Of a stretch of DNA of 64,000 nt, positions 5,924 through 53,984 are shown in pieces. The DNA is from an uncultured archaeon (GTDB lineage: Archaea > Thermoplasmatota > Penumbrarchaeia > JASLWR01): NCBI GenBank assembly GCA_964430885.1, contig CAYSHM010000005.1:1-64000 (forward strand), written 5' to 3'. The position numbers and the translations under genes were made by a program. Below the pieces are notes generated by a model. The model was not told where the DNA came from and did not search any database. It worked only from the letters and a program-made list of their open reading frames with translations. Positions within the stretch are counted from its first letter, which is position 1, and every line of letters starts with the position of its first letter.

Positions 5924-6229
5924 ATATATCTCATCCCTGATATTGAATGGATCAATTGGTTGCCACTATCCAATATAAAAATATTGTTAGGGCATTTATA
6001 ATTATGTTTATTTACAACTTAATATTAAAATAGCCACTACCTTTCTCTCCCATATTTCATTTTACCTATATATGCTATATGGTATTATGGACTGGTAAAA
6101 TACACAGAAGAATAAACAGGAAAAATGACTGAAAAAGTATACCCATTTAATACCAGGAAGAAGAAATAATAACAACTCGCAGGACCGAATATCCTGAAGA
6201 TTTGGATTGCAGATATGATTCTACTTTTA

Positions 6230-7969: not shown

Positions 7970-8130
7970 TCTATCACTCCATTAGATTTCAAAATTCACC
8001 AGCCTTTTTCTAATATATATTGTTATTGGTACGTCATTTTAATCCATTTCATCTGTTCTTAACCAAGGCATGAAATAGATTGTTAGAGTATATTTTCACT
8101 ATTCAAAAGTTTTAGAATACAGGAAAAATC

Positions 8131-8164
8131 CAAAAAAAATCCCGATAGGAAAACTCCTACCGGG
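8131..8164 (-). terminator. Hairpin plus T-tract downstream of the 8189-9766 gene
   Basis: Minus strand reads CCCGGTAGGA-GTTT-TCCTATCGGG followed by A and a T-run. The G-U pair forms only on the minus strand. Confidence 0.55.
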
Positions 8165-8188
8165 AAAACACCAAGCTGTCGAAAGGTA

Positions 8189-9766: not shown

Positions 9767-9916
9767 AAATTATCACCTATCTTTCTTTTATGAAATCTCA
9801 ATTTGATTAATGAATAACCTCTTGTTCTATACTTAATTACTATATGCATTATTCCAAATTACCGAATGGGACCTGCAAAGTCCAATTCGAAATTAGTTCT
9901 GAAATTGGTTTTGGAT

Positions 9917-12900
9917 TTATTTCTTGAAATGATTGACTGCGTAGACCGTTCCGGCTGCGGTCATTCCGGCGAGGATAATAAAGAACACTATCCACGGTGT
10001 GGATTCCTCATTGATTCCAAGACGTTCGGCCCAAGTGCTCTCCTTAACATTGATGTTCTTTTCAATGATATTATTGCCTTCTGATTCTTCCACTATCTCA
10101 TTATCCGGATCTATGGCAATGCGTATTTCATGTTTTCCGCTGGTTACCGGCCAAACAAAGGTGACGATCTTAACACCGCCGTCCTCCTTCTCCTTTGTTC
10201 CGCTCAATCGGGGGAGTAGTCTAGTATCCACCTCTTTGTTGTCAACATACAGACTGACACTTATATCCTCTGCAGTTAACACACCGGTGTTCCTCACCTT
10301 GGCCGTGAAAGAGGCAACTTTTCCAACTTCAAGAGGCGTATGTGCAATACCGGTTGCATTGTCAAGACGCAGGTCAGGCATAATAATAGTGATCTTGAAG
10401 TTCTCGACATTATCGGCAGGATAAACATCACCGTCCCTTAAAGCCTTGATACTGAAATCAAAATAACCTTCCTTCTTCTCCTCTGGAACTTCAACTCTGA
10501 CGCCGATATAAAGTGAATCGCCTACATCCATACGGATGTTGAGGTCATTGATAGATGCAAGGTCGCTCGTACTTGGAACGTATAACACGTTAACATCGCC
10601 ATTGATCAGATTGATGGTCCCGTTGAAATTGATGGGTTCCAATTTCGTAAGTGATTCTATCTTTCTGTTAAGGGAGATGAAGGGGAAATATATGTTCCAA
10701 TCCAGTATATCGGCGAATGATATGTTCAATTTGACATCATCTATTGCATTTCCGATGTTCTTAACTTCGAAGATGAAATCGCATTCGCTTCTGGGCGGTG
10801 CGTCCTTTTCTACAATGTCGGATATTACCATGAAGTTGGCCTTTTTATTGACGTAAAGATCAACATACTTGGTATCACCGTAGCCCAATATCTTCTCCCT
10901 GCTGGAGTAATTGATGCCTATCTTATATGGATCCTGACCAGGGGTCTCCGGGTTTGCATCCCACATTGCATTGGATGGAACCTGAATGGTAACCCAAGTG
11001 GAACCGTTCATATATGGACCCAATACCATTGAAGAGTTGATGAACTGATAGTCCCAACCTAATGGCAGATCTACAATGGCCAGATCCACGATCTCGTCAC
11101 CATTACCTTCATTGACTATGTTGACCTGATAATCCACCTCTTTCCCTGGATCGCAGTTCAATGATGGAGGTACTACCGAACCTGATAACTTTGAAACCAG
11201 ATTGGAAATACCGGTGACAGATATAGATGATGCTGGGAATTCCATACCGAAATTATCATAGCCGGTAGCCCTGATTTCAATAACCTTCCGTATACCTGCA
11301 ACTGCATGGTTGGGGGCAGCGATCTGGAACTTGATCTTCTTGATATCTCTGCTCATGATCTCAAAGTTATTGGTCTGGAATCCTGCGGACCATTTCTCAT
11401 CGAATATCTGAAGTGAATTGACTATATCTCCAGCTCCAGTGAATGAGAAGATGACATCGAGTGAGGATTCGTAGTTGTTGGTGATTATCAACTCGTACTC
11501 CACTATTGAACCCGGGTCAATATGCTTGGAGTCATCCTCGCATACGACCACTATTGCAGGCAAACCGGTTACGGTCAGCAGCAGATTGTCTGATCTCCTG
11601 AGGGTCCCCAATCCGAGAGAATTATACATCTGGGATATTGCTGTAATTGTAATATCCACTCTCTCACCCTTGGAAGCCGTGATCGGAGCTTCGACGGTGA
11701 TATTGATGATCACCGAATCAGCAGCCCCTTTCTTTCCTAGAGAAGTATTATATTTATCAGTCCCATCATCGAACATTACTTTCCAGTTGGATGGATAGGA
11801 AAGGGTAACATCATAGGTATCGTTCACATTACCCATGTTATGAAGTTCGGCATGGTATATCTTCCTCTCCCCAGGAGCTATCTCGCCTATCTTATAACCT
11901 GTGAACTCGTCCTTGTCAGCAAGGAATTCAAGGTCAAAATCCACTTCAATGTCAAGTATGGATACCGTTGCAAGCTTATCCTGGGTAACACCGTATTCAT
12001 TGGTCAATCGGGCAATCACACTGACGACACACGGTTCACTAACCTTTCCCAAAGGCGGTGCGGTAACAGACAGAGTGACATTATCCGTCTCATGCATCTT
12101 CAGCTCGACCCACCATAGCTTTGAACCGTCCGGCTGCTCCAAACCGTCATCGTCGTTGCTTGGGGTATCAAGCTCAGCACTCCAACCCGGAAGAGGATCA
12201 GTTATGGACAATTCAATCTTATCGGCCTCCTCATAAGCCTGGCTGAGAGGATTCTCCACGAAACCTAGGGCTGAACCCACTGTTATGTTGTAGGTAACTG
12301 TATGTTCAGGCTGAACCATTTTGACCATGTCGTCCTCTTCGCCTGTGTTGGGATCCTTCTGCGGCTCAACAACAACATCGTTGGGTTTGTTGATACCAAG
12401 GTTAAGAGTATTTATGGCCATGGCAGTCCCCCATACCATTCCATACTCTCCATTCCAGCTCCCGTCTGCGTTCTGGGAGCTCATGAGTGCATCGGAAACC
12501 TCAGCATACCAATCCTGCCATTCCTGTCCGCCCACAAGATACATGGCAATGGATGCATGGTAAGTATAATAGAATTGGTTTATATTGTAGGTTGGACCCC
12601 AACCCCTTATGGAATTCAATGCCCCCTGAACAGATGGCTTATCACCTTTACCCATGAGAAGCATACAATATGTTCCCACTGCAGTATTGGTGTAGGAAGT
12701 ATAAGCTCCGCTGTAACCGTACCCTGAACCGCTCGCACAGTGATCAAGCCATCTCTCAGAGTATTCAAAGGTATAATCTGGAACATCATAGATACCCGAA
12801 GATTCCGCTAGAATGACTGCGTGCATGTTCCATCCTGAAAGCGAGGTATCTGATGAAGTATGTGTAGGAGTATATCTCCAACCGCCCTGGCTCCGAGGAC

Positions 12901-29195: not shown

Positions 29196-32100
29196 GTGAT
29201 TAAAATGAATTGGTTTTACAGAATATCGAATCAGAGAGCATCAAAGATCTTATTGATCTCACTATCCTTGGCATTGTTCTTTTTCACATCTTTAGCGCCC
29301 CTAGGCACTATGTGGTCTGATACCGATCACTTGAAGGAAAACTCCAAATCCCATGGTCCAAAATCGTCCGGTGGGGAAATAGATATCCTTGCTGAATCCG
29401 ATGGAGGATTACTCCAGGCACCAGCACATCCTCTGAAAGAAGGGAATCTGAGACGCAGCATCTCGAGACCTTCTCCCACACCGTTTCCTTATCTGGAACG
29501 TTCCGATAACCGTCAGGGGGAGTTCAATCTTCTATGCATTAGGGTCCAATTTCAAGAGGATGATACTCCGCTTACTACTGGTAACGGCCTTATGGAGCCT
29601 GAACACAATGAATATTATTACAATGCCATATTCCAGCAGATGAGCGATTATTATAAAGAGGTTTCCTACGACCAGTTCAACCTAAATGCTTCAGTAACAG
29701 AAGAGATATTCACTGTGGACCACAATATGTCCCACTATGGTTCAAACGGTAATGAGGTGCAGAAGAACGTATATCTGATCAACGATACAATCGCAAAGGC
29801 AGACCCGTCCATTGATTTTTCTCAGTATGATTTCTTCATCGTTATACACGCCGGTTCAGGGGAGGAAACCGATATCAACAACGATTCACCCCACGATATC
29901 TGGTCAAACAATTTAGGTTTGTATCATTTCTGGGCCGTACTAGGCGGGCCCATACAAACAAATGACGGAAAGAGCATAAGTCAGATCAGCGTCATACCGG
30001 AAACCCAGAACCAAGACGGACTTTTCAGTCAGAACATTACTGGAGTGGCATGTCATGAGTTCGGACACAACCTGGGATTACCTGACCTATATGATGTGGA
30101 ATACCACTCGGATGGAATAGGAATTTGGGGTTTGATGTCCGCAGGACCAAATCTCAACGGCGGATTGACCCCTTCTCATTTCTGCGCCTGGTCAAAGATG
30201 TATCTTAATTGGGTAGACCCTATGATTATTGATACCAACCGAACCGATGTTTATATCAGAAATATTGAGGATTACAAGGATATTTACAAGATCGTATTGC
30301 CAGGCTCTAACGGAAAAGAATATTTTCTTCTGGAGAACCGACAGCGGAGAGGATTTGACAGATACCTTCCGGGCGACGGGCTTCTGATATGGCATATTGA
30401 TGAAAATATCATATTTCAGGATGTCGGTTGGGGATTCAACAGGCTTGAAGCAAACGATGTGAACACGTGGCCCAACCACAAGGGAGTGGACCTCGAAGAA
30501 GCCGGAGGAACACAGGAATTGGATATAATTGGAGATTACAACAGCGGAGACCACAGGGACCCATGGTTCGGAAAACCTGAAGGTTTCACTCCTTATACGG
30601 TCCCTAATACCTTCACCTATACCGATATCAATACCGAAATACACATCACAGACATATCCTGGTCATCCAACAACATGTCCTTTTCCGTGAATTTCAAGGA
30701 TAGGGCAATTGATCTTAAAAAGCCCAATATCAATACTACATCAGGGCTGCCAGGAGCTAGTATTTCCTTCCCGCTCCGCCTTTGGTCGAATAGGGCGAGA
30801 GAGAACAGCTATAACGACCGGATAACTCTTACTGTGGAAAGCGACCATTCTGATCTACTAGTATTAAGCCAGAATCCGGCTGAAATACCTTTGGATGCTG
30901 ACAATATCTTCGTCTATGCAAATCTGACCATCCCTTTGGATGCACACTATCAGGACCTGTACATATTCCATATTACCGCCGAATCGCAGGATGATGTTCA
31001 AGCGCCAACTGGGCTCACATTGACTGTAAGTGTTGAAGAGATACTTGAATTTGCACTTTCACCTATTGGGAATATCACACTTCTCCCTGGTGAGGCCAAC
31101 GTTCAAAACATAACGATAGCCTTCAACAACAGTGGAAATGATAGAGAAAGGTTCGATTTCAGCGTTGAACTATCCGATGAGGATTGGGAATGGGAATTGA
31201 GTCAGGAGCGCGTATGGCTGGAGCCGGACTCAGAACACAAAATTTATCTATACCTCTTCTCACCGGATAACTCCATCTTCAGCGATGAATGCGTATTTGA
31301 TATCTTCATGGAGCACTCAACCGGAACCCTTACAACCGGCTTCTCAGCTGAAGTGCTGCAGATATTCAACCTTACCATGGAAGTAGTGGATATAGCTGAT
31401 TATGCGACTCATTCAGACCCTTCCGTTTTGAACATATCTGTCAGAAACTACGGCAACGGTCAGGATAATATTTCAATAAGCCTGACCGGAACCAAGGCAG
31501 GTTGGACAATAGATTTCTCATCTGACTACCTGATAATACCAAGAAAAGGGATCCGATATTTCACCGTGACAATAACTCCTCAAAAACTCGCCCACTACAA
31601 TGATGATTTCCCCTTCACCGTAAAGGTCCACTCACAGGGCGGATTCAGCCTTGAAAGCGAAAATCTGGAAGTGAAGGTCAGCAAATTGGTGCTTCTGGAC
31701 CTAGAATGTGATAACAAAAATATCACATTGAGCACTAAAAAAAATACAGTTCAGGTCACAGTACAGCTATTGAACAAAGGAAATGTTGAGGATTACTATC
31801 AAATGAATGTGGTAATGCCCCCGGATGTTAAAATGAGTCTAGAGGGCATTAACAAGGACAACATTACCATACCTGCTTTCAATGACATCTTCATGGTGAT
31901 GCTGTTCGAATTCCCGGATGATATCACCGCAGGGCTTTATTACATAGATATCGATATTAGCTCAAGCAGACAATCAGACATTACCCTGGAAATGAGGCTG
32001 AACATTACAATTCCAAACATATATGAGCTCCAGGTCGATTTCAGCTCTGACAAGGATGGATTGGACCTATCAAAATCATCCTCTATAAAATATACTATCA

Positions 32101-32783
32101 CCGTTAATAACACTTCAAACCGGAATATCACTGTGATACTTGAGGACATAGGAGAATTAAAGGGATTCAAGATAACCATTCAGCCTAAGGAACTGACGCA
32201 TAAACTTGACATTTCCGAAGGGGGAGAATTCACCATATTGATCAGTTCAACTCCATCCAGTGAAATTAAGAATATCGATTTGTCATTGAAGGTTAGGGTA
32301 TTGGAAAATGGAAAAACCTACTCAGAGGATGAAACACTTAAGGTGACCCGAAGTATAATTACCAACGGGGATGACGATGATGATGATTCTGACAGTGGTG
32401 AAGGAAAAGGAGGATTAATGTCATCATGGATCATCTGGGCAGTAGCTGGAGCGATCTTGCTTTTCATCATCTGCTTGGTTGTTGTATTGGTTATCAAGAA
32501 GGGAAAAAAGAAGGACGAGGAACTTCTTCTAGATGATGAAATTGATGACCCTGGTTCATCGGAGGAAGCAACTGAGACTGAGGAGGTGGAGGTGGCCGAA
32601 GTGGAGATTGCCCCTGACACCCTGGAGATTAAAGAAAACGACGATACTCTCCACGAGGACTTTGCTTCAGAAGAAAATAATATGGTAAAGGCTTCAGATG
32701 ATGAAATAATTGACCAGAAAGAAAATATTTCAGGAAAAGAAGTATCAATACCAAAGCCCAAACCCCCAAAACCCCCTGAATAG
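29196..32783 (+). CDS. M6-family (immune inhibitor A-like) metalloprotease with Ig-like stalk, TM anchor and acidic tail
   Basis: HAGSGEE, HEFGHNLGLPDLYD, WGLMSAG, EYFLLENR, GLLIWHIDE. Signal peptide and C-terminal TM helix. Confidence 0.92.
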   Translation: MIKMNWFYRISNQRASKILLISLSLALFFFTSLAPLGTMWSDTDHLKENSKSHGPKSSGGEIDILAESDGGLLQAPAHPLKEGNLRRSISRPSPTPFPYLERSDNRQGEFNLLCIRVQFQEDDTPLTTGNGLMEPEHNEYYYNAIFQQMSDYYKEVSYDQFNLNASVTEEIFTVDHNMSHYGSNGNEVQKNVYLINDTIAKADPSIDFSQYDFFIVIHAGSGEETDINNDSPHDIWSNNLGLYHFWAVLGGPIQTNDGKSISQISVIPETQNQDGLFSQNITGVACHEFGHNLGLPDLYDVEYHSDGIGIWGLMSAGPNLNGGLTPSHFCAWSKMYLNWVDPMIIDTNRTDVYIRNIEDYKDIYKIVLPGSNGKEYFLLENRQRRGFDRYLPGDGLLIWHIDENIIFQDVGWGFNRLEANDVNTWPNHKGVDLEEAGGTQELDIIGDYNSGDHRDPWFGKPEGFTPYTVPNTFTYTDINTEIHITDISWSSNNMSFSVNFKDRAIDLKKPNINTTSGLPGASISFPLRLWSNRARENSYNDRITLTVESDHSDLLVLSQNPAEIPLDADNIFVYANLTIPLDAHYQDLYIFHITAESQDDVQAPTGLTLTVSVEEILEFALSPIGNITLLPGEANVQNITIAFNNSGNDRERFDFSVELSDEDWEWELSQERVWLEPDSEHKIYLYLFSPDNSIFSDECVFDIFMEHSTGTLTTGFSAEVLQIFNLTMEVVDIADYATHSDPSVLNISVRNYGNGQDNISISLTGTKAGWTIDFSSDYLIIPRKGIRYFTVTITPQKLAHYNDDFPFTVKVHSQGGFSLESENLEVKVSKLVLLDLECDNKNITLSTKKNTVQVTVQLLNKGNVEDYYQMNVVMPPDVKMSLEGINKDNITIPAFNDIFMVMLFEFPDDITAGLYYIDIDISSSRQSDITLEMRLNITIPNIYELQVDFSSDKDGLDLSKSSSIKYTITVNNTSNRNITVILEDIGELKGFKITIQPKELTHKLDISEGGEFTILISSTPSSEIKNIDLSLKVRVLENGKTYSEDETLKVTRSIITNGDDDDDDSDSGEGKGGLMSSWIIWAVAGAILLFIICLVVVLVIKKGKKKDEELLLDDEIDDPGSSEEATETEEVEVAEVEIAPDTLEIKENDDTLHEDFASEENNMVKASDDEIIDQKENISGKEVSIPKPKPPKPPE

Positions 32784-33066: not shown

Positions 33067-33996
33067 ATGCTGAACACCGCAACAAAGATAACCCTGGGCA
33101 GATTGATATTGGTTTTCCCTGTCCTCTTCCTGTTGTGGTTCCCGTCATACCGTATAATTGCCATAGTTCTATTTGTGGTCCTTTCCTTGATGGATGCCCT
33201 TGATGGTTATGTTGCCAGAAAGATGGACCAAGTTACCAGGATAGGTACCATACTGGATCCTGTGGCCGATAAACTGACAATTCTCGGTCTTCTGATAATC
33301 CTTCCTCTGATCTATCCTTACTTCCCGATATGGTTCTCATTGATAATTATCGGTAGGGATATAGTCATTGTTTTTGGATGGACAGTGCATTATTATCTTA
33401 CAGGTAATGCAATTATGATCCCCAGCAGATTAGGGAAGATCACCATGTTCATCCAATATACGACCATCAGTGTTGCCGTATTGATGGTTACCCTTTATGC
33501 CTATGATATAGATCCTTTGAGCAACAAGGTTTGGCTGGCTAATTTCATTCTGCTTGCAGTATCGTTCCTTACAATATTTACTTCCGTGGATTACATGTTC
33601 GCCCTTATTCATCATGGTTTTAAAAGTCACCCTGGAACTGTATCTCCAATGGACCTCGTAAAGGATAGGAGGGACCTGAGAAGAGCCAAGAAACGAAAAC
33701 CAATGGCGAGAAGAAGAATAATGAAGCATGTATACAAAAAGCGGAAGGAAGCGAAAGACCTTCCTCTGTATAAAGCTATCCTAATTGAGAATTTCCCAAA
33801 AAGACGTGTATGTCAGATATGCCAGGGAACTATGAGAAAGACCAGCGTTCTCAGATGCAGATGCGGCAGGTTTTTCCATAATGAATGTATTCAGAAGACT
33901 ATTGGGGAATGCCCCAGATGCGGAACCGTCATGCACCTTGATAAAAAAAGAATACCCAAAGAAGACATAATAAAAGGTCTGCTTAGAACTAGCTAA
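33067..33996 (+). CDS. CDP-alcohol phosphatidyltransferase (PgsA-like) fused to a C-terminal C4HC3 RING-like finger
   Basis: Intact signature DALDGYVARKMDQVTRIGTILDPVADK. C-terminal CQIC..CRC..H..C..CPRC. Confidence 0.88.
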   Translation: MLNTATKITLGRLILVFPVLFLLWFPSYRIIAIVLFVVLSLMDALDGYVARKMDQVTRIGTILDPVADKLTILGLLIILPLIYPYFPIWFSLIIIGRDIVIVFGWTVHYYLTGNAIMIPSRLGKITMFIQYTTISVAVLMVTLYAYDIDPLSNKVWLANFILLAVSFLTIFTSVDYMFALIHHGFKSHPGTVSPMDLVKDRRDLRRAKKRKPMARRRIMKHVYKKRKEAKDLPLYKAILIENFPKRRVCQICQGTMRKTSVLRCRCGRFFHNECIQKTIGECPRCGTVMHLDKKRIPKEDIIKGLLRTS

Positions 33997-34074: not shown

Positions 34075-37000
34075 TCAAGGCTGGGTCCTATCATTGCCGT
34101 ATATAGAATATCGGGTCCTCTCCCCGGATTTATTAATTTCTAATCCTTCATCCGGTTCTGAGTGATCTTTGGTGTTCTTTGTTTTTTGAAAACTGTCATC
34201 CCTGTTTGAAGAGTACATACCGAAATCGCTTCTTTTTCTTCTCCGCACATATAAGACAGCTAGAATCACACACAGAATCAGTACTAAAGCACAGGATATT
34301 ATCAATAACCAAAATGTCGATTCCACAAACCTTCCGGTCCTTCCATCAAGAAGGTTTTCAAGATCATCATCCAATTCACCCGGGGCGGAAGTGTTTTTAT
34401 TATCATTATCGGACCCAGGCAGCACTACAATATCCCTTATTAAACCGTATTCAAATCCTACAAATCCAAGAAGGGCCATCACTTTAAATTCGCCTGAATC
34501 TATTGGGGTGAAGTTCCAGTTAGCACCACCTTCAAAAGCATAATTAAACCTGCCCGTATCCGAAGCAATCAGGAACCATTTAACATATTGAGGTTTGGGA
34601 AAAGTACCATTGCAGTGAAGTTCAACTCGAACCTGACTACGCTTAGGTACTATACTGCCTGGTTTCAAGCTAAGATACCATTTTTCGTCCCATTCTTCCT
34701 TTGATAAAATTGTAATGTTCCGCTGGAGAATAATATTGACATCTTCTTCTCCCAAGAGGCCGCTTATTATGACTGTAATGTTGTAATTATCCGGTTTTGC
34801 CAGAGATAAAGTTATCGAGCCCCCATAATATTCATTGACAGTAGCACCTAATCGAACCTTCCATGTGAAATTACATTCGGCGGAATCCAAGGCGGATAGA
34901 TCTGATCGATTTATTAACACCGCACTGCAGTTGAAGGATCTATCTTCCAGACCGTAAGAGGGGCTGAACATTTCACCAATAATCCCGGGTTCGGACTCTC
35001 CAATAACTTGGACCAAATATCGGGCTATAGAAATTCCAGGAGGGCGCCAATCAGTGCCTTGGTCTGTGACATTCAATTGAACCAAAAATGAACCCTTGAA
35101 AGGAAAGCTGTAAGATAGATTCTCATTTATAATTGGACCCGCAAAGAAACAATGTGCATAAAGCTCATGGAACTCCTCGTTAAACAGAGAGATGGAGCCT
35201 GAAACATTGAAGATCCACCATGTAAATAGGAGCTGGTTGGATTCAGCATCAGCAGCTTCGGGCTGACACTTATGTAGGTCACCTACCTTAATAGTAACAT
35301 TCTCCAATTCCAATATCTCCGGAGGGGAATTCTCTGGAGCCTCTTCTATCCTGAATGAGAAGGGGGGCGAGGGGATTTGGGTTCCATTTTCATCTGTAAC
35401 CTCAACCATCCATTCATACTCATGACCAGTCCATAGATATTCAGGGGAGATATAGTGAGAACATTCATGGACCACATTGGGGGGATTCAAAGCTGAATAT
35501 GTGAAGTTATCAGTGTGGATAGAGAACCATTCTGGAAATTCCGCATGTAGATCATACAGATAGATCTCAACATGAAGATCATCACCATCCGCTTCCTCTA
35601 AATTATAATCCAGCTGGATCCCCGTCTGAGATACTGTATAGGGAAGTACTGCATCAGTTAATGGCGATTCGAGTGTTACGGAAGGCGGATAATCCACATC
35701 CACACGGAAGGTCCTAATCTCTGATTGAACCTGAACCTGCTGTCCATCTTCCCTCACATCCCTTACTTCCAACCACCATTCATACCAATTGGCATCATCC
35801 AGAGGGCTGGAGATGGTCAAGTTCAGACTGTCAGCTATATGATCGTGATCGGGACCTATCAAAGGTATGGGCCCGCTATCTGCCGTAGAGCCGAGTTGCA
35901 TTTTTCTCCAGAACAAATTTCCCGTGATATTGTCCCCGTCATGATCTATAACATCAAACTCAAGGGCCGGTGTCAGATCCTGGAATTCTATCCCATCCGC
36001 TGTGAGGAGATCGGTTACCGGAGGCCTGTTGGACATTTCTGTAAGATTGTTCTTCACATAGATATTGCTGGATTCGCCGGTGTCGTTGTGCGATGAGAAG
36101 ACAAGCCAAGTGGTTCCGTCTGAACACGGCATGGTAGCAGGGGATGCGTCATCGTCCAGGGATTCGGTCAGTAGGCATCCATCATCCATCAACCTGCTGT
36201 TTCTTTCAGAATTCAATTGGGTGAAATAAATATCACCGTTGGATTTGCCATCGATAGTCCTATCTGAATAATAGAAAAGCCTCGCCGATCCGTTAATTTC
36301 ACCAAGGGCCGGATCCTGAGACCCATGCTTAGAATCAACCAACCTGGTCGGTGCTTTCCAATCGCTCCATCCGGGTGAAGATGTTCCGAAAACCTCTTTT
36401 TTTCCATTCGGACCTGTTGACTGTGCCCAGAGTATCCACAGCATGCCATCCTCGGTCTGATAGTTATATGTCCCGTCCACATGAGAAAGAGTATCGCTGA
36501 CCTTGGTGGGATCATTGAAGGATTGTCCGTTATTGACTGAATAACTGAAATAAACTCCATTATCTGCACCGTCCATTGAAAAAACGCACCAGAGGGTTCC
36601 GTACCTGGTGCGGTGAAGATTTGGGTCCATGTGATTTGAACCAGGGAAAAGGTCCGTGATCATCTGCTCTTCACCCCATGAAGCACCGCTGTCTGTCGAA
36701 AGCCTGTAGCATACCCGCCATTTATCGTTAATTTTTCCCTGGTATGAAAGGACCCAAGTTCCATCATTGGATTGGGTAAAGGTTGGCGAGGCAATCTCAT
36801 CAAGCTGAGCCGTGAGCAGCGTCTCCGGGGTGCTCCAATTCTGGCCTCTGTCTCCGCTGATAGTCATTAAGATACTGCTCTCACCTTGAGATCGTTCAAG
36901 CCAAACAAGACATATATCACCATTGTCCAATTCAGCAACATCCGGTTCCAGGCTGTCAGCTTCTGTTGGGAATACCTCGGTCAGCATATGATCCACAAGG

Positions 37001-37932
37001 GGCAGGTCCAAATCCGGTCTTTCCAAGCCGTAGTAATCGAATATCCCGAAGAACATTCCTCTCCCGGCTGACTCCTTGAAGCTATCCTGATGGAGAAGCT
37101 GGTTATCGTCGTAATTGTCATGAAAGGCCACTTCTACCAAACATCCCGGCATATTCGTTTCCCTGAGAACGCACAAAGAGAAACCACAAATATCCTCATC
37201 CTTCAGAACCCCCCGATCCTGTGTTCCGCATTCCGCCACAAGGGGAGGATGAATATCATTGGCCAAAGCAAGATCCGCCGAGGGTGAACCACCGCCTGTG
37301 CCCGTATCCTGGCCGCCCCATATGGTCATTGTCCCTCTGGCTGACCCACCTCCTGCATTTGTATGGATGGATATGAATATGTCCCCGTTGACCTGATTTG
37401 CATATTCAGGGCGGATTGTGAGATCCTGATTGAGAGAACCAAAGCCTGAATAGCCCATTGCACCTCTTAGGTGACACCAGGCTCCCTCCTGCCATTTCGG
37501 CTGTCCGGATATACCGATGCTTGCATTCTTGTCCAGTTCCCTGGTCACGTGCAAGTTAGCTCCTGTGTGTTTATCAAGATAATCAAAAAGATAGGATGCT
37601 ATTTCAACTGTGAGCTCATCCTCCACAAGACCCCAGCAGTCCGGACGCTGATATACCCAGGAATTCCCGTTGTAATAGAGACCATGCCCCGGATCAATGA
37701 CAATGTCAATTCCATCCAGTGGTAAAGCGCGAACACTACACAGAGCCGGCGGGGATCCAGAGTAGAGGACGTAGGCATCGGTATGTAAACCTTTTTGAGG
37801 GAATGACGATGCAAGAAAAAAGAAAATTAAGATTAAAGAAATAAGCAAGCTGAGAGGGCATTTGCATTCCTTGGGTGATCTAATGGGCCTTAATATATGA
37901 GATATGAAAGAAATAATGTATTTTCTCATCAA
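34075..37932 (-). CDS. N-acetylmuramoyl-L-alanine amidase (Amidase_3) + BNR/sialidase-like propeller + Ig/PKD stalk + TM anchor
   Basis: IVIDPGHG, EDELT, DIFISIHTNA, VLRETNMPGCLVEVAFHDN. Asp-boxes SGDRGQNW, STDSGASW, SVNNGQSF. TM helix followed by RRRKR. Confidence 0.88.
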   Translation of the reverse strand: MMRKYIISFISHILRPIRSPKECKCPLSLLISLILIFFFLASSFPQKGLHTDAYVLYSGSPPALCSVRALPLDGIDIVIDPGHGLYYNGNSWVYQRPDCWGLVEDELTVEIASYLFDYLDKHTGANLHVTRELDKNASIGISGQPKWQEGAWCHLRGAMGYSGFGSLNQDLTIRPEYANQVNGDIFISIHTNAGGGSARGTMTIWGGQDTGTGGGSPSADLALANDIHPPLVAECGTQDRGVLKDEDICGFSLCVLRETNMPGCLVEVAFHDNYDDNQLLHQDSFKESAGRGMFFGIFDYYGLERPDLDLPLVDHMLTEVFPTEADSLEPDVAELDNGDICLVWLERSQGESSILMTISGDRGQNWSTPETLLTAQLDEIASPTFTQSNDGTWVLSYQGKINDKWRVCYRLSTDSGASWGEEQMITDLFPGSNHMDPNLHRTRYGTLWCVFSMDGADNGVYFSYSVNNGQSFNDPTKVSDTLSHVDGTYNYQTEDGMLWILWAQSTGPNGKKEVFGTSSPGWSDWKAPTRLVDSKHGSQDPALGEINGSARLFYYSDRTIDGKSNGDIYFTQLNSERNSRLMDDGCLLTESLDDDASPATMPCSDGTTWLVFSSHNDTGESSNIYVKNNLTEMSNRPPVTDLLTADGIEFQDLTPALEFDVIDHDGDNITGNLFWRKMQLGSTADSGPIPLIGPDHDHIADSLNLTISSPLDDANWYEWWLEVRDVREDGQQVQVQSEIRTFRVDVDYPPSVTLESPLTDAVLPYTVSQTGIQLDYNLEEADGDDLHVEIYLYDLHAEFPEWFSIHTDNFTYSALNPPNVVHECSHYISPEYLWTGHEYEWMVEVTDENGTQIPSPPFSFRIEEAPENSPPEILELENVTIKVGDLHKCQPEAADAESNQLLFTWWIFNVSGSISLFNEEFHELYAHCFFAGPIINENLSYSFPFKGSFLVQLNVTDQGTDWRPPGISIARYLVQVIGESEPGIIGEMFSPSYGLEDRSFNCSAVLINRSDLSALDSAECNFTWKVRLGATVNEYYGGSITLSLAKPDNYNITVIISGLLGEEDVNIILQRNITILSKEEWDEKWYLSLKPGSIVPKRSQVRVELHCNGTFPKPQYVKWFLIASDTGRFNYAFEGGANWNFTPIDSGEFKVMALLGFVGFEYGLIRDIVVLPGSDNDNKNTSAPGELDDDLENLLDGRTGRFVESTFWLLIISCALVLILCVILAVLYVRRRKRSDFGMYSSNRDDSFQKTKNTKDHSEPDEGLEINKSGERTRYSIYGNDRTQP

Positions 37933-38737: not shown

Positions 38738-41700
38738 ATGGCCAGTAAAAAAAAGCATCTGAAAAGATTTCTTAAAAGCAAGAAAAGCACGTTATTGAAA
38801 GCCTCGGTGATCCTAATCACTGTGATATTCCTTTCCCTATTGATCCCTGAAAAGGTCGGTATAAGGGAATACCAAAGCAAGATCATCAGGCATAGACCGG
38901 ATACCCGACTTGATGAAAGAACTGCAGAGGATCCTGGAAATGGAGGGATGCTACCCTATTTCCATTATGTGGACAGCAGTGTAAATACCGCAAACGGAAA
39001 CTTATTCATTTCTGAGAACGATATCTCTCGGCCCTCACTCCCCCAGGCATTGACTTTCAGCAGGTCCTACAATTCCATGAACTCCCTGTCAACTACATCG
39101 GTTGGTTACGGATGGACCCATTCTTACAATTCATATCTCATGCCGGAAGAAGGTATGGTCACCCTATTCAGGGAAGATGGGGCAGTGTTCAGTTTCAATG
39201 AGAACGGTACTGAATTCGATACTCCGCCTGGACTTGATGCCTTATTGACCAAGAACGGCACAAATTTTCTTCTGATGTACAAGAATGGAATGACCTTCAC
39301 CTATGACCGCAACGGCGTTCTGAGGAACCTTTACGATCGGAGCGGGAATAAACAGAACCTCAACTACAAGGACGATGTTCTAACACATGTCAAGGACATT
39401 AATGAACAGTCCCTTGAATTCAGCTATGACGCAAGTTCAAGGCTTATCAAGGTGAGCGACGGGACCAGAGATGTCACATTCGAGTACGACGGAGGGGGAC
39501 GGCTGATCAAGGCAACTGATGCATCGGGCAACTCTACAAATTACTACTACGGCCCTAACAACCAGCTGAAGGTAAGAGAGGATAGAAGGGGCAAAGCCGT
39601 TTATTATGAATATGACCAGGACAGCAGAGCCTATGAGATAGGTAAAGCAGAAGGCGATCTTCTCTTCAAATCCCAGACAAGCCATTATCTGAAATATTCA
39701 ATATCCTATGTCGAATCTGGGGCCGAATTGACCAATGCCATGGGACATGTATGGAATATCAATCTCGATACAGATGGCAGGATTTCAGGCATAACCGATC
39801 CTTTGGGATACGGCACCACAGTGACATTCGATGAGAATTGGAATGTTGATTCAGCAGAGGACCAGATGGGCAGTACCCAGCATTTCGAATACGATAATTA
39901 CAACAATATGGTCACCTGGACCGATCCCCTTGGTAATGCAAAGGCCTATACTTATGAAATGTTCACAGTGGATTTCTATTACTGCCCCCCTGCCACAATG
40001 ACCGACGAGAACGGCAAGACCTGGACCTACAGCTACAACTCCCAGGGCCGGCTTCTTGAAGATAAGGACCCAAGCGGCAATTCAACCCTGTACACATGGA
40101 CAGAAAACGGGCTTCTGGAGAGCATCACCTATCCTACCGGTGCCCGGACCGATTATGAATATGACAATTCAGGCAATCTTATCAGCACAGCAATGCCCAA
40201 CGGACTGTTGGTGGATTATTCCTACGATTCCCTTGGCAGAATGATCAAGCAGAAAAAGGGAAACCGGGTAACGACTCACTCATACGACCTGAACAATCGA
40301 CTTTACAGAACCAATTACCCTGACAACAGCTATGAGGTTTACGAATACGACGCCCTTGGCACAATTATCAAGAAGAGAGATCAGAACGGCGGGATCCATG
40401 AATATGACCACGGGGAGAAGGAGGTAATAATTGAAGAGGTTTTGAACGGAACGGAGATCTACAATGCCAGGGTGAACAAGATTGGAGATATTCAGAAGGA
40501 GCAGAACGCCAACGGGGACATCACCTCCTATTATTATGACCCAATGGGAAGACTGACCATGATAAAGTATCCTGATAAGACCTATGACAGTTTCAGCTAT
40601 GATGGTGCCGGCAGAATGACCTCGGCAAAGGACCAGATGGGTTTCACAACCACCTATGAGTACGATGCAATTGGGAGGCTGGAAACCGAGAGGAACCACC
40701 TGGGAAGCACTGTAACCTACAGCTATGATGCAGCAGGGCGCATGACCGGGTTCAATGATCTGAATGGAGGTCAGTGGACCTATGAATATGATGCAGTGGG
40801 CAATATGATCAAGGAAACCGACCCAGCTGGATACTCCCAGAACTATACCTATGACGCTGTGGGAAACCGCATCTCCCGGGAGGATAAGAACGGTAACATG
40901 TGGGAGATGGAGTATGACGGGATGAACCTTATGACCGAGATGAATCATCCAGACGGCGCTGTGGAAAGCTGGTCCTATGATCTATACGGTGATGTTACTG
41001 AGCATGTGGATGCCGATGGAGAGAGATGGGAATTCGAGTACGACAGCATGGGCAACATGATCAAGGAAATAGACCCCCTGGGCAATTTCAAGGGCTACAG
41101 CTATGACAGGCTGGGAAATATGCTGTCCTACAGGGATGAGAGAGGAAACAGAATAAGATACCAATATGATGATCTCGGAAACATGATTTCAATAACCGAT
41201 CCCCTTGGACGAATCACCGAATACGAGTACGACGGGGAGGGAAACATCATCGAGATGGAAAGGCCCGACGGGGAGGAGTTCACCTTCACATACGACAGTT
41301 TCGGAAGGGTTCTTTCACAGAAAACCCCCTGGAGAACCCTGAGTTACGGATATGATGCAGGAGGAAACCTCATCTCAAAAACCGATCCCTGCGGGAATGC
41401 GGTAAGAATGGAATATGATCACAACGGATTGATCCTGAAATACACCGACGAGGAGGGGTATTCAAGCAATTACAGATATGATTCCGACGGAAATCTCATT
41501 AGGTATGATGACCGCAAGGAAGGCATTCACTGGTGGGAATACACAAGGGATGCAGTGGGCAGGGTTACCATGGTGGAGGATCCTGCCGGGAACAGCTGGA
41601 GATACAGCTATGACGGCGAAGGCAATATAGTAAGGATAGTGGATGCAGCGGGCAATCCTGCCAGCTACAGCTATGACCATATGGGGAATATCCTATCGCA

Positions 41701-50100: not shown

Positions 50101-51932
50101 TTCTTTCTGCAGCTGATTGGGGAATTGGCGTTGACCATATCTGGTACTCAAAGGATGACGGATCCACATGGATGACCTATACGGGACCCATCCATTTCAG
50201 CGGTGACAGCATACTGATAGGGGCAATTGACAAGTTGGGCAACAATGAAAGTGCCAGAAAGATAATGCTCATGAGCGACAATACTGCTCCTGACACCTCC
50301 TATTCCATATCTGGCAATATCATAGGCCGTTCACCCTTGATCGTGGAATCAGGAAGCAAGCTTCAGCTGCGGGCTTCCGACAACAGCCAGATCAAAAGTA
50401 TATGGTATACCTTGGACGGGACAAGTTTTCATACCTACCAGGGACCAATTGATCTAATTGACAATATCTCAATAATCTACGGTGCAGTTGATATATTCGG
50501 CAATAACGAAACAGGCAAAAGCCTGGAGATAGGTGTCAGAAATAATGTGGCCTCTGCTCCATTTGTTATATCGGTTTCACCCTCACCCGGGTCCACTTCA
50601 ATACCTGTACTTCCAAGGATAGTTGTCAAGTTCAGCAGGACAATGAACACCAGTTCTGCTGAAAAGGCCTTTTCAATGGACGTCCCCGGGTCCTTCAGCT
50701 GGGATGCATCTGAACGGAACATGACCTATATTCTGGGTGAAGAACTGGGTTACAAATGCTTCTATACCATTGTGGTGTCAAAGGAGGCAATGAGCCCTCC
50801 TGGAAATAAAATGGTAGCGGATTTCATCTGGAGGTTCCAGACCAAGGAATATTCCGGCGGGGACAGTATGCAGACATTCACAGATTCCCTAGCAGTGGGT
50901 GAAGGGCTCGCCCTTAATGCAGAATACAGTGCCCTAGGAAAGATCATTCTGGAACCCTTGGCCAGGTCTGAGATAGGGAGCACCTACCCTTCACCGGCAG
51001 CGGATATGATGCTATTGGGAGCCTGGTTGGCACAGCCTACTCCTGGAAACGCTTTGGAGCATATGGATCTCAGTGTGGATTATGCCAACCTAAATGCACC
51101 GTCCCTGGATATGAACAATGTCAGCATCTACTATTTCGACGGTGCCAGCGAGACATGGGAAGAATGTTCCTCATTGAGCAATGATCCTGCCAGCGGTGTT
51201 GTTGAAGGAAGGGGGACTGAATTCTCCGCCTATGCAGTATTGACAAATCTCAAAGGCAGTTCTGGCAACGGTAGCCAGCCCTCTGGATCTGACCTCGATC
51301 CAATACTTGAAACCTCAAAGGACGATAAGAGTTCATACACTGGACTGACCATAGTTGTAATAGTAGTGACCCTGATCTTACTTGTCATTATGTTCTTTGT
51401 GCTGTCCAGAGGGGGAAAGAAGGAGGGGAGCGATTACGAGGAAGAATTTGAGGAGGACGCTGATGAGAAGGATGATGGACAAGAGGAGATCCTGGAAGAA
51501 GAGGTAGAGGACGAGGAGGGTTTTGAGGAAGGTGTGGAGAAAGAACGACTTGGAGAAGATGATGACGGGGAAGCTGTAGAGGTTCAGGAGGGATTTGTGA
51601 AGGAGGCGAACCCGGAAGTAGAAGAGGCAGGCAAAAAAGAGGAGGGGAATGATATGGAAGCTGAGGAAGGGGGGACGGCAGAGGATGAAGATCAGTCTGC
51701 AGAGGTAGTAGAACCTGCTGAAGTCGAAGAGGAGGAGGCGCAGGGGGAATCGGAGAGTGAAGCCGCTGAACCGGCCAAGGTAGATACAGCTGATGAAATT
51801 GTTGAAGAACCTAGAAAAGAATCCCCCGAGGAAGTTCCAGGTCAAAAGGACAAAAAAGCTGATCCGCTCACTGATGAAGATGATGACGAATTCGATGAGC
51901 TGTTGTCAGATCTGGACATGGACGATTTCTAA
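47184..51932 (+). CDS. Large adhesin-like surface protein: beta-helix/NosD, five OmpL47-like Ig repeats, Big_5-like domain, TM anchor, acidic tail
   Basis: GDGSPGNPYVIEN, GGNYWDNY..DGFGDTP..DNYPL, repeated IWYSLDG..Y.G.F..A.D..GNNE, VISVSPSPGST..VKFSRTM. ATGA overlap with the upstream gene. Confidence 0.88.
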   Translation: MRPNKGIKNLFNISFISIVLLISGLAVGLYPLISEFGTAELADPGNLAPHSVIDITSDAGFNQSNGVTHGDGSPGNPYVIENLSIDAGGGNGISISATSANYVIRNCHVYNATGYGIHLIPSSGNVSVMNCDINNTQDQALRMIGTVDNFLMDRIDVWNIHNGDGIYINPNAEKVMLENITSTNTSGVAFNLQGNVMEYSMKNINIHNVSNDRGIYSYNYEQNGKFIVNNITINKTSSDGAYLYVANKDFIGDRINLLNLPSGWGFYIQGNWGEESATLSNVYVYNFTSGEYAVYVTSFRNAHIDNMTVIDMAEIGAYALNIYDIDNGNITVRDFYGDNCRDGLRIYYCDNANIDLKRIDITETFRGFYINDCDGSQVLFNNIMLTEYSYHGIALSGMDDATVTVINSEFVGVGGFSGDGAISSSFGNDYTNYIIDNFTARDHYWYSIDLDLDQGSNVSITNSTFRNIGSYGGINIDGDYDPSYVNSTISNCLFDTMNTPIYLRNHISSVHNNKMENVGSDAMEVNKMDGSVLYENTIQNASNNWQGRGIEVVSTENITIKGNTILDMITGIRVWEGCRNNRIYNNVFLANELNAQDQTLGNNSWNATYGEGGGNYWDNYTGVDDFSGEGQNEAGADGFGDTPFTELLNIVDNYPLMNIPIWLDTFYPVSELNTTNDTYIKWENGSFVMYFIPDVTVFTIEAMDYGSGVEHIWYSLDGLTYQEYSGEFTLEAGAENLYFRAEDFNNNNESLHHMILKGDGDEPILEPALGLPNHMDGDDIFVRNSTEINFKAVDEGAGLDRIEHSLDGGSTWVEFPGLFSIENSISDYMIRAVDMLGLTAAKTYQLVVDSSKPLTDIAIDHYLGEDPRYVRSYALVTLEAADDGLSGNGSGIGKIWYSLDGGQRFETYNGSFHLPAWCHQVYYGALDNVGNNETGSLLDVFVDNEDPVTSIRALGDYYLTENKLYMTDNDTLLLSAADWGIGVDHIWYSKDDGSTWMTYTGPIHFSGDSILIGAIDKLGNNESARKIMLMSDNTAPDTSYSISGNIIGRSPLIVESGSKLQLRASDNSQIKSIWYTLDGTSFHTYQGPIDLIDNISIIYGAVDIFGNNETGKSLEIGVRNNVASAPFVISVSPSPGSTSIPVLPRIVVKFSRTMNTSSAEKAFSMDVPGSFSWDASERNMTYILGEELGYKCFYTIVVSKEAMSPPGNKMVADFIWRFQTKEYSGGDSMQTFTDSLAVGEGLALNAEYSALGKIILEPLARSEIGSTYPSPAADMMLLGAWLAQPTPGNALEHMDLSVDYANLNAPSLDMNNVSIYYFDGASETWEECSSLSNDPASGVVEGRGTEFSAYAVLTNLKGSSGNGSQPSGSDLDPILETSKDDKSSYTGLTIVVIVVTLILLVIMFFVLSRGGKKEGSDYEEEFEEDADEKDDGQEEILEEEVEDEEGFEEGVEKERLGEDDDGEAVEVQEGFVKEANPEVEEAGKKEEGNDMEAEEGGTAEDEDQSAEVVEPAEVEEEEAQGESESEAAEPAKVDTADEIVEEPRKESPEEVPGQKDKKADPLTDEDDDEFDELLSDLDMDDF

Positions 51933-52016
51933 AAATAGATGAAATTCCCAATACCAAATTCAATAGCCGCACCGGGGTCGCTATTGATCCCAAGCTTATC
52001 GATGATAGTACTAATC

Positions 52017-53984
52017 TTAGTTATCATTGGCCCCATTATGCCAGGGGTCATAGTTAGGCTGGGTCTCCAGGGGTATAGCAGGCCTGAAAGCCGGGTCCCC
52101 GTACATTGTGAAGAAGGTTACCTCTCTCCAGTCAACAGTGTCCTTGGGTTCAAAGGGAGTCGGACTGTTGTTGGGACCATAGGCCATGTACCTGTTCTCG
52201 CACCATTGGACCGCCTTCCCAGCAGTTCCGTGTTCTTCAGGATGGTTGAGTATACCGTCCCAGACAAAGGCATACCAGGCATCGTTGTGATCCCATTTGT
52301 GGTCGTCCTCGATTAAGCCGTATTCTGCCCGAAGAGCGGGTATGTCCTGTCCTATGTTGGAGTAGCTTATCTCTGTGGCCCCTATCAATACGGCGGGTCC
52401 TGCTGAAAGGTAGTTAAGTGTGAAAAGGTTCTCGAAATTGACATCGCTCTGGGGCTGGGTGCCGGGCCCGTGACCGTAGATCTTACCGTTAAGGCATGAG
52501 ACAAAGAAAGCTATCTGAGGCGGGACATTCATGGTCTGGCAATCCCCATACCTAAGTGCGTGCTCATCCCCATTTGGTCCTCTCACCCTTATGCCGTAAA
52601 GAGAACCAGTATCCGAACCATGGCCTCTATAAGCTACGTATCCAGATCCCTGGCATATCTCTATGATATTGGTCTCTTTGGAATCCACAACACCGTCGGC
52701 CAACTTGACCCCCGTTCCCGAGGGACCCCAGTAATCATAAGTGAAACCGGCATCATCATAGTCCTTGCAGATCCATCTTGCAGGGGTAGCCTGCATCCTC
52801 TTGTAGGTAATATCATAACCTGAAAAGGAGGCCCCGTGCGTCCGCCAGTTCTTTTCATGAGGTCCTCCGGCAATATCCCTGTAGTTTACCGGCACTGTAT
52901 CGGCAAAATCCTCAATAAACAGTGATTTGGAAAGCTGATTGGAAGCAAGAGATGCATCAAATTGGATCAGTCGGCCCACGGCAGCATCCTGAGTGTAGGG
53001 GTCATCATCAAGAAATCCGTATATAATATCAGAATTGGTGATCTCACCCTGGCCGCCTATCTGGGTCAGGAATTGTGGTACTGCAGAAGCACTGCCTACA
53101 ATACATACATATTCAGCAGGGCCATACATTGAAGAAACCTTTCTGATCATGTCATAATATCCCATTGCACGCCTGTTCTGGGATAACTCCATATTTAGGG
53201 TCCAATCAACCTGCTGGATGGGAGGTGCGTCGGTTATGACGAAGGCGTCGTGATGGACCGCCAGCTCTCCGGTCAAAACCGATAGAGCGGGACAGAACCA
53301 GGCATCATCGTAGGAATCGTAATCCGGTGTGCTCTGGTTTAGATGTTTAAGGGAAACATCAAAGGGATTGGTAGCGATAATGTAATTGGCTGGAATGCCT
53401 AGGGCTTTCATTTCCTTCCAGGCTGATTCCTGATCAGGATATGTCATTCTGCCGGATATGAGGGCCATGTTGGTGTTCTTGGCTACTGCGGTGGCCCAGA
53501 GTGCTTCGGAATATGATGAAACAGTGATAACTCCGTCAAACCCTATGAAATTGGACACTGCATTCGATGTGAGTGGCAGATAATGCTCTTCTTTGACTGG
53601 AGATAAACCCGCTTCTGAAAGCTGGGAGTTCACTGAATTGAATAACGCTTCTGAATTTACAAACAACAATTTAGCCCGGTCAGTTTTCCAATTGGTCAGT
53701 GTGTATATCTGCTGGGATGATAATTTCCCCTCCTGGTCAAGGATCATGAAGGGATTGTAAACTTCACCCCTGTTTATAAGTGAACTGAGACAGGCTACAG
53801 AAAGCATGTCATCGGGGTTCTTGGGATATTCAGTTATGACCATATAATCCGAAGGGAGCTCTATTGTTGGCTGATATAGGGGCCTGTCTTCTTCTTTAGG
53901 CTGGGAAAAATAAAATATCAATCCTCCGGTAACCAGTACAGACACCAGGGCTACAGCTGTAATTTTCTTGTATTTGGCGTTCAA
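52017..53984 (-). CDS. C25-family (gingipain-like) cysteine peptidase with N-terminal membrane anchor
   Basis: YVCIVG..VP, SDIIYG, AVGRL, YRGHGS (His), FVSCLNG (Cys), MYGDP. TTG start with AGGAGG SD. Confidence 0.8.
   Translation of the reverse strand: MNAKYKKITAVALVSVLVTGGLIFYFSQPKEEDRPLYQPTIELPSDYMVITEYPKNPDDMLSVACLSSLINRGEVYNPFMILDQEGKLSSQQIYTLTNWKTDRAKLLFVNSEALFNSVNSQLSEAGLSPVKEEHYLPLTSNAVSNFIGFDGVITVSSYSEALWATAVAKNTNMALISGRMTYPDQESAWKEMKALGIPANYIIATNPFDVSLKHLNQSTPDYDSYDDAWFCPALSVLTGELAVHHDAFVITDAPPIQQVDWTLNMELSQNRRAMGYYDMIRKVSSMYGPAEYVCIVGSASAVPQFLTQIGGQGEITNSDIIYGFLDDDPYTQDAAVGRLIQFDASLASNQLSKSLFIEDFADTVPVNYRDIAGGPHEKNWRTHGASFSGYDITYKRMQATPARWICKDYDDAGFTYDYWGPSGTGVKLADGVVDSKETNIIEICQGSGYVAYRGHGSDTGSLYGIRVRGPNGDEHALRYGDCQTMNVPPQIAFFVSCLNGKIYGHGPGTQPQSDVNFENLFTLNYLSAGPAVLIGATEISYSNIGQDIPALRAEYGLIEDDHKWDHNDAWYAFVWDGILNHPEEHGTAGKAVQWCENRYMAYGPNNSPTPFEPKDTVDWREVTFFTMYGDPAFRPAIPLETQPNYDPWHNGANDN

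Follow-up and report, generated by a model that had tools for sequence, protein, structure and literature searches.

Here we describe P0001, a protein of 1965 residues from an uncultured archaeon of the phylum Thermoplasmatota, which joins a predicted membrane anchor to the plug and repeat shell of the RHS superfamily, and in which sequence analysis finds neither a canonical nor a cryptic RHS autoprotease core. Its gene lies in a 64,000-nucleotide stretch of DNA (positions 1 to 64,000 of contig CAYSHM010000005.1, assembly GCA_964430885.1), which is referred to below as the window. P0001 has relatives in other genomes, and the family would consist of YD shells in which the RHS aspartyl-autoprotease core either was lost or was absent from the start. 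An original prediction, made by a model from the DNA alone, had presented the gene as a membrane-anchored YD shell without this core; checks of the open reading frame (ORF), domains, motifs, aromatic content and nearby proteases show that this description of the gene was correct.

A predicted membrane anchor, a plug and a YD shell

The reading frame of P0001 is open without a break through all 1965 codons, and its parts are listed in Table 1. The basic N-terminus, the single hydrophobic helix lacking an AxA cleavage site, the DUF6531-like plug and the very long YD array that had been described were all found. Residues 1–17 are rich in lysine and arginine, and the segment of residues 1–74 has an isoelectric point of 10.3 with 16 lysine and arginine residues. 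The helix spans approximately residues 18–36 (nt 38789–38845) with a Kyte-Doolittle peak of 2.47, and hydropathy in 19-residue windows exceeds 1.5 only at residues 16–43 across the whole protein. There is no AxA motif downstream of the helix, where the sequence reads IPEKVGIREY. All five full-length family members tested have a hydrophobic helix at the N-terminus. The N-terminus therefore looks like the signal-anchor helix of a type II protein, in keeping with the teneurin-like anchor that had been proposed.

DUF6531 also scores above the Pfam cut-off in the relatives P0004, P0005 and P0007, and in P0009 it reaches 22.3 bits, which is below the 24.1-bit cut-off. The array that follows, ~1300 residues of YD repeats, was matched by RHS_repeat (PF05593) in 25 stretches (E 4.9e-148, Pfam) and by YD_repeat_2x (TIGR01643) in 24 stretches (E 2.2e-120, NCBIfam). 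When residues 766–1965 were modelled with AlphaFold2 (AF2) from a 16-row alignment, the YD array alone was resolved, as β-hairpins running from residue 766 to about residue 1425 with a predicted local distance difference test (pLDDT) of 65–95 per 10-residue block. A Foldseek search with this model returned Rhs shells, the best at E 9e-49. The shell of P0001 belongs to the RHS/YD superfamily by both sequence and fold.

Absence of the RHS autoprotease core

The Rhs_assc_core profile (TIGR03696, NCBIfam) has no match in P0001 at E<=1, and it is missing from all six family members scanned (P0001 and five relatives). When all six frames of the 3.13-Mb genome, which is 91.6% complete, were searched, there were 0 matches, with five candidates scored; the same search did return matches in control genomes. 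The aspartyl autoprotease motif is defined as DPXGX18DPXG (PMC10684867). A regular expression for DPxG-X16-22-DPxG has no match anywhere in P0001, and none of the 14 family sequences has this motif in its C-terminal tail; the three matches that do occur among them all fall between adjacent YD repeats. In canonical relatives the same expression gave an exact match in 9/9, located at the core in 7/9. Alignment with hhalign of the family's cap region, which stands at the position of the core, against eight canonical archaeal cores gave a probability of 0.2%, and this cap contains no conserved nucleophile. A cryptic core was rejected since the profile (at both protein and genome level), the motif expression and the cap alignment were all negative. 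Stretches such as Y-x-Y-H-Q-D-H and Y-S-G-L-E bear a visual likeness to the canonical core's first half; this likeness has no statistical support and we do not claim it.

The core is retained among relatives of the host. RHS repeats were found in 10 of 60 related Thermoplasmatota genomes, and in all ten the canonical core lies in the same open frame, ending in the textbook R-A-R-Y-Y-D-P-x-x-G-R-F ... D-P-x-G. P0001 also contains no PAAR, VgrG, LXG or similar delivery domain (Pfam). The prediction that PAAR and VgrG are lacking holds for the protein, and the genome has no match to Phage_GPD/VgrG; it does not extend to PAAR in the genome, since a PAAR ORF is present on another contig (G000:C18:57309-57605, + strand, a 133-aa frame that the PAAR motif matches twice, E 1.2e-12).

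A conserved cap and a new C-terminal domain

In place of the core there is the aromatic-rich region that had been noted. Phenylalanine, tryptophan and tyrosine make up 22% of this alternative cap, compared with 12% of the shell; W1485 and Y1525 are invariant in all seven family members, and cap identity is 22–36% across the family. The tail beyond the cap measures 409–438 residues (44–48 kDa) in 7/7 members analysed. Its first ~130 residues form a linker that is aromatic in P0001 and P0004 and rich in proline, glycine and serine in the other members. AF2 gave pLDDT values of only 20–42 for cap and linker.

The remaining ~290 residues form a helical domain that is more conserved than any other region of P0001, with 25–42% identity in comparison with 25–34% for the YD array. 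AF2 predicts only helices in this domain, with low confidence (pLDDT 40–65); a model of residues 1459–1965 from a 7-row alignment had a mean pLDDT of 39.8. The helices are strongly amphipathic. A hydrophobic moment above 0.5 was found in 7–31% of 18-residue windows in the helical domain and in 1–3% of those in shuffled sequences, corresponding to z values of 5.3–12.7, and the observed value was reached by at most 1 in 200 shuffles. The most amphipathic helix has a net charge of +3 to +8 and in six of the seven members adjoins a moderately hydrophobic F-x-P-x-x-G-(Q/W) segment that is itself conserved. In P0005 the top amphipathic cationic helix lies ~30 residues upstream of the F-x-P-x-x-G segment. 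The equivalent of Cys1805 is the sole cysteine of P0009 (2020 residues).

No significant match of the tail to known folds or toxins was obtained, the best values being E 0.048 in Pfam, 0.042 in a PDB profile search and 0.85 in the ESM Atlas. DUF445 was considered as an identity for the tail and rejected, its weak matches (E 0.007 and 0.031) falling under the cut-off. The original prediction had proposed a homologue search for C-terminal polymorphism, and the conservation of length and sequence runs the other way. Since both are conserved and no significant library match was obtained, the tail is a new domain that the family conserves, rather than a polymorphic toxin cassette.

Weak matches to the basic helix of the tail together with F-I-P-I-A-G-W (E ~2e-5 to 1.5e-4) were seen at three Anaerolineae-class loci, L049, L050 and L053 (genomes G584, G681 and G702), in frames of 607, 766 and 5883 residues that hold no informative Pfam domain.

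Table 1. Features at the P0001 locus. Positions are those of the window.
Feature	Position	Strand	Basis or remark
P0001, putative protease-less YD-shell protein, whole gene	38738..44635	+	single ORF, 1965 aa; Pfam and NCBIfam matches
Basic N-terminus, single transmembrane helix and short stalk, aa 1-74	38738..38959	+	hydropathy, charge
DUF6531 N-terminal plug, aa 81-153	38978..39196	+	PF20148 E 1.7e-15 (Pfam)
YD/RHS repeat array, shell wall, ~aa 161-1436	39218..43045	+	Pfam, AF2, Foldseek
W/Y-rich family-specific alternative cap at RHS-core position, aa 1437-1548	43046..43381	+	conserved in 7/7 members
Variable linker with terminal Lys-rich patch, aa 1549-1679	43382..43774	+	16-31% identity within family
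Conserved all-alpha amphipathic C-terminal domain, aa 1680-1965	43775..44632	+	cationic helix, F-x-P-x-x-G-Q segment
Cys1805 codon, the family's only invariant cysteine	44150..44152	+	column CCCCCC, 6 full-length members
P0002, downstream partner, 851 aa	44632..47187	+	signal peptide, ~270-aa N-domain (nt 44632-45540), PKD, Ig-like repeats, transmembrane helix, acidic tail
P0003, third gene, 1582 aa	47184..51932	+	beta-helix/NosD and Ig-like domains, transmembrane helix, acidic tail (Pfam)
M6 peptidase	29196-32783		E 1.4e-17 (Pfam)
C25 peptidase	52017-53984	-	E 8.9e-20 (Pfam)

A rare family found in archaea and bacteria

A phmmer search with residues 1440–1965 of P0001 against 1.84 billion representative proteins (E<=0.001) gave eight matches: the query, six relatives (P0004–P0009) and one low-complexity repeat protein that was discounted. 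P0004 (1983 residues) is 39% identical over the entire 526-residue query. The full-length relatives P0004, P0005, P0007 and P0009 have the helix, DUF6531, YD array, W/Y cap, linker and helical domain in the same order, which bears out the proposal of a distinct class as a conserved family sharing one architecture. A scan of species-representative genomes added the members L042 and L043, and a scan of 301 genomes from the class of G401 added L048, with full-length matches in 2 of the 301. Within the phylum of the window, the family profile matched 1 of 401 genomes, the window's own. Two scans of metagenome contigs yielded no further family loci, and a homologue search with residues 1400–1965 recovered the query alone. 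Shell identity to P0001 is 23–36% for family members and 19–26% for canonical Thermoplasmatota relatives.

This distribution bears on whether P0001 might be an artefact, either an RHS gene wrongly joined to sequence of another origin or an RHS gene in decay with an eroded core. The contigs from the same sample (four DNA runs of one study contain the stretch, two of which may be its source) are short and none was seen to bridge the YD/cap junction at nt 43046, the one point in favour of such a join; they contain no joints, indels or variant letters, and no RNA run with the stretch is listed. Against an artefact, six protein clusters, all independent, share the colinear architecture, as do three other genomes. 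The same junction in independent assemblies excludes a chimera, an outcome that the original prediction had named as a refutation, and identities of 22–36% in the cap and 25–42% in the helical domain, in a frame that is uninterrupted, exclude neutral decay. We therefore consider misassembly or decay so improbable that it can be set aside.

Ribosomal protein markers were used to place the carriers. The genome of the window (G000) has the archaeal S3Ae and lacks the bacterial S20p, and the window's threonine synthase shares 67% identity with proteins labelled 'Candidatus Thermoplasmatota archaeon'. Conversely, the carriers G401, G402 and G433 have S20p without S3Ae and are therefore bacterial, so that the description of the class as archaeal was too narrow. 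L042 is labelled as an Anaerolineales metagenome-assembled genome. Labels among the members of the family clusters include 'Candidatus Kariarchaeaceae archaeon' and 'Thermoproteota archaeon'; the latter, in the P0006 cluster, is uncertain because G402, which has a near-identical gene, carries bacterial markers. The family is thus rare and patchy and spans archaea and bacteria, and horizontal transfer of the whole gene is the simplest explanation of such a spread. The GC content is 0.47–0.50 in the four consecutive genes at 38738–53984 (YD, partner, β-helix and C25), 0.40–0.46 in other genes of the window, and 0.42 for the window outside 38738–51932.

A conserved partner gene

The start codon of the downstream gene, P0002, overlaps the stop codon of P0001 (ATGA). 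Over its first ~290 residues, P0002 matches the products of the genes immediately 3' of the family member at L043 (E 1.4e-19) and L042 (E 9.5e-14, BLASTP), and the N-domain is also encoded directly downstream at L048. A partner gene therefore stands next to the shell gene in all four loci for which there is downstream context, and the four partner proteins share a signal-peptide-like start (4/4) and mostly a PKD domain (3/4). The partner domain is itself rare: its profile found three proteins only in a collection of 5.8 billion sequences, within the length range searched, and among 401 genomes from the phylum it was found in one, again the window's own. A PDB profile search with the partner found nothing (best E 0.85). 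Prediction of a complex between the tail and the N-domain of the partner scored 0.00, which is no answer and counts as evidence neither way. The shell and partner genes thus constitute a conserved two-gene module, albeit one for which three of the four contexts are from related bacteria.

The third gene, P0003, overlaps P0002 in the same manner (ATGA) and is translationally coupled to it. It had no BLASTP match among the neighbours at L042 and L043 at E<=0.01 and is not conserved at other family loci.

Comparison with known YD-shell systems

The DUF6531 plug and the long YD shell are common to P0001 and the canonical RHS toxins Tse5, RhsA and Rhs1 (PDB 8cp6, 7q97 and 7pq5), whose chains it matches with E values of 1.8e-47 to 1.6e-36 by sequence and 1.7e-47 to 1.7e-41 by fold. 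In addition, the C-terminus of Tse5 is membrane-active, and the tail of P0001 is predicted to be amphipathic. Unlike these toxins, P0001 has no TIGR03696 core and no DPxG-X18-DPxG protease, it has a membrane anchor in place of PAAR/VgrG or another secretion adaptor, its tail is 45 kDa and conserved where theirs is ~16 kDa and polymorphic, and its downstream gene encodes a large secreted protein instead of a small immunity protein. By its sequence, P0001 departs from the definition of an RHS polymorphic toxin in three respects: the core, the protease motif and the polymorphic C-terminus.

Metazoan teneurins have a type II single-pass anchor, a YD shell, no cleavage, and C-terminal domains that lie outside the shell (PMC5851990). 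P0001 resembles them in its apparent single N-terminal helix after a Lys/Arg-rich segment, its YD shell and its lack of a cleavage motif, and Foldseek matched it to teneurins at E ~1e-32. However, Pfam detects no EGF, FN-plug, NHL, ABD or Tox-GHH domains in its sequence, and whereas teneurins keep a recognisable Rhs-core fold, P0001 has no detectable core and an unrelated all-α tail; the external position of the tail is a feature of teneurins that in P0001 we infer. In topology and non-cleavage P0001 would thus be most like a teneurin, yet it does not appear to be a member of the teneurin family.

Bacterial teneurin-like proteins (TLPs; PDB 9ifo/9pt5) are, like P0001, rare and patchily distributed surface YD-shell proteins with partner genes (PMC13018210), and P0001 matches them by sequence at E 5.9e-31. 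The same source describes TLPs as having a superfold of FN-plug, NHL and YD shell, a DPxG motif and enclosed, polymorphic C-terminal domains of ~15 kDa, none of which is found in P0001. With the BC component of Tc toxins there is only distant shell similarity (E ~2e-26), and P0001 is without the TcB β-propeller/SpvB Pfam domains.

The canonical RHS proteins of Thermoplasmatota relatives (L033–L041) come from the same phylum and combine a signal peptide or N-terminal anchor with a YD array; the Lys-rich anchor of L040 is very similar to that of P0001. These proteins have a canonical core (TIGR03696 E 1e-17 to 1e-25), which P0001 does not. Five of them (L033, L034, L035, L036 and L041, from G019, G017, G015 and G035) are 2290–2553 residues long and extend for ~540 residues beyond the DPxGL cleavage site. 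The extensions, which are far larger than the usual RHS cargo, contain a hydrophobic segment rich in Gly and Ala, together with a conserved domain and a PKD-like repeat, followed in L033, L034, L035 and L041 by a C-terminal transmembrane anchor and an acidic end; L036 is without this anchor.

Possible mode of action

We tentatively favour a reading in which P0001 presents a membrane-active tail on a non-cleaving, surface-anchored shell, together with a protective or recognition partner. The basic N-terminus and single helix would place the protein N-in/C-out in the cell membrane with the shell outside the cell. With no DPxG protease the tail would remain covalently attached, and by analogy with teneurins it may be presented at or outside the shell and not released. 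Upon contact, the amphipathic tail would most likely target the membranes of adjacent cells, while the partner, secreted and surface-bound, would most likely be a protective or recognition factor, and the two-gene module would move horizontally between monoderm archaea and bacteria. In teneurins there is no conserved cleavage motif, and the C-terminus of the uncleaved protein exits the shell through a gap (PMC5851990).

Size is one consideration in placing the tail. The tail of P0001 has a mass of 45 kDa compared with 169 kDa for plug, shell and cap. In Tse5 a 16-kDa toxin lies within a 126-kDa shell (PMC10684867), and in bacterial teneurin-like proteins the C-terminal domains average ~15 kDa and the cavity is ~44,000 Å3 (PMC13018210). 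With M^1.5 scaling, the P0001 tail would represent, as a rough inference, ~1.8 times the Tse5-equivalent load, and even at perfect packing its minimal volume of 54,000 Å3 exceeds the 44,000 Å3 of the BiTLP cavity.

Several points weigh against a presented tail. AF2 confidence is low for the cap, the linker and the helical domain, so the models do not place the tail, and membrane topology is read from hydropathy and charge alone. No homology was found between the tail and any known toxin or pore former, and amphipathic helices also form ordinary soluble bundles. The DUF6531 plug and long YD array are the kit of encapsulating toxins, and Tse5 hides a membrane-active cargo of exactly this kind inside its shell. 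The constant length of the tail despite an unconserved linker could be a cavity-volume limit; the volume argument is itself crude and compatible with encapsulation, as the P0001 shell is about one third heavier than that of Tse5. Finally, in its large size and its secretion the partner differs from classical immunity proteins, and three of the four partner contexts come from related Chloroflexota-like genomes and so are not independent.

Alternatively, P0001 could be an encapsulating toxin with non-canonical release, its 45-kDa tail packed largely unfolded in an enlarged shell closed by the alternative cap. A trans-acting protease, cutting for instance at the Lys-rich patch, would free the tail, or the shell would open when it meets its target, with the partner as immunity protein or trigger. 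Besides the plug and array, which also occur in encapsulating Rhs shells of known structure, and the fixed length of the tail, the P/G/S-rich linkers look unfolded, and the encapsulated, membrane-active toxin of Tse5 provides a precedent (PMC10684867). The M6 and C25 peptidases, which the original prediction had pointed to as possible release factors, were both found by Pfam in the window less than 10 kb from the gene. However, there was no M6 or C25 peptidase among the nine neighbouring ORFs that were Pfam-scanned or read at L042, L043 and L048, so that a role for the window's proteases is without support, and the conserved neighbour is the secreted partner. The cap, moreover, offers neither protease motif nor conserved nucleophile, the tail is conserved and not polymorphic, and the load and volume estimates above are unfavourable. 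On balance we regard encapsulation as somewhat less likely than a presented tail.

P0001 could also be a non-toxic, teneurin-like scaffold for adhesion or recognition, in which shell and helical tail serve cell-cell or cell-matrix contact without killing and the partner is a ligand or co-receptor. The conservation of a tail that does not diversify, the type II-like anchor and uncleaved shell, the adhesion-type PKD/Ig-like domains of the partner and the lack of a small immunity gene all agree with such a role. Yet NHL, FN-plug and EGF domains are missing from P0001, the pairing of a strongly cationic amphipathic helix with an adjacent hydrophobic segment is more like membrane-active peptides than adhesion modules, and a nearby gene resembling peptidoglycan hydrolases (Amidase_3, see below) suggests a setting of antagonism. 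A purely adhesive function accordingly seems to us unlikely, and presentation of a membrane-active tail is still the reading that we would place ahead of it.

Extending the reading of a presented tail, one can imagine, although we hold the scheme as a whole to be doubtful, that a YD shell which once served as a self-cleaving toxin capsule has become, in a conversion separate from that of teneurins, a platform that stays anchored for good and is not cleaved. It would carry a conserved 30-kDa membrane-active domain on a tether of fixed length, guarded or guided by a dedicated secreted partner, as a two-gene system shared by horizontal transfer among Thermoplasmatota, Asgard-labelled archaea and Chloroflexota.

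In the literature consulted, solved prokaryotic YD shells (Rhs effectors and bacterial TLPs) keep the aspartyl autoprotease, and metazoan teneurins alone are reported without it (PMC10684867, PMC13018210, PMC5851990). If P0001 and its relatives are indeed anchored, protease-less shells of archaea and bacteria, the loss-of-protease transition also happened in prokaryotes, and the family would offer an experimentally tractable model of the way in which a C-terminus is presented by, or released from, a shell that is not cleaved. The new tail domain and the partner, for which no PDB profile match was found, would also add to the thin catalogue of archaeal systems for cell-cell interaction or antagonism. 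A literature search, which had supplementary files outside its scope, found no description of such a protease-less YD-shell family.

Other genes near P0001 and its relatives

Two genes upstream of the YD gene, at 34075–37932 on the minus strand, the window encodes a 1285-residue protein with an Amidase_3 domain (N-acetylmuramoyl-L-alanine amidase, E 2.1e-24) and BNR repeats. Archaeal peptidoglycan hydrolases that kill bacteria were described in a 2025 paper (PMC12352652), and the region around the YD gene may be an antagonism island. At 33067–33996 (+) there is a CDP-alcohol phosphatidyltransferase with a C-terminal match to a RING-finger-like zinc finger (E 2.9e-4), which is below the Pfam cut-off.

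At L043 in G402, a second large YD protein of 2247 residues is encoded two genes downstream of the family member (5994–12737, +). It has DUF6531 in mid-protein, a PKD domain and a core-like C-terminal end that stops without a DPxG cleavage motif. A motif, Y-L-P-L-x-V-R, that looks like a sorting signal is common to secreted proteins at L042 (11591–13457) and L043 (4099–5253 and 5994–12737). It is C-terminal in three proteins, and in the large L043 protein it occurs as Y-L-P-F-I-V-R ~200 residues before the end.

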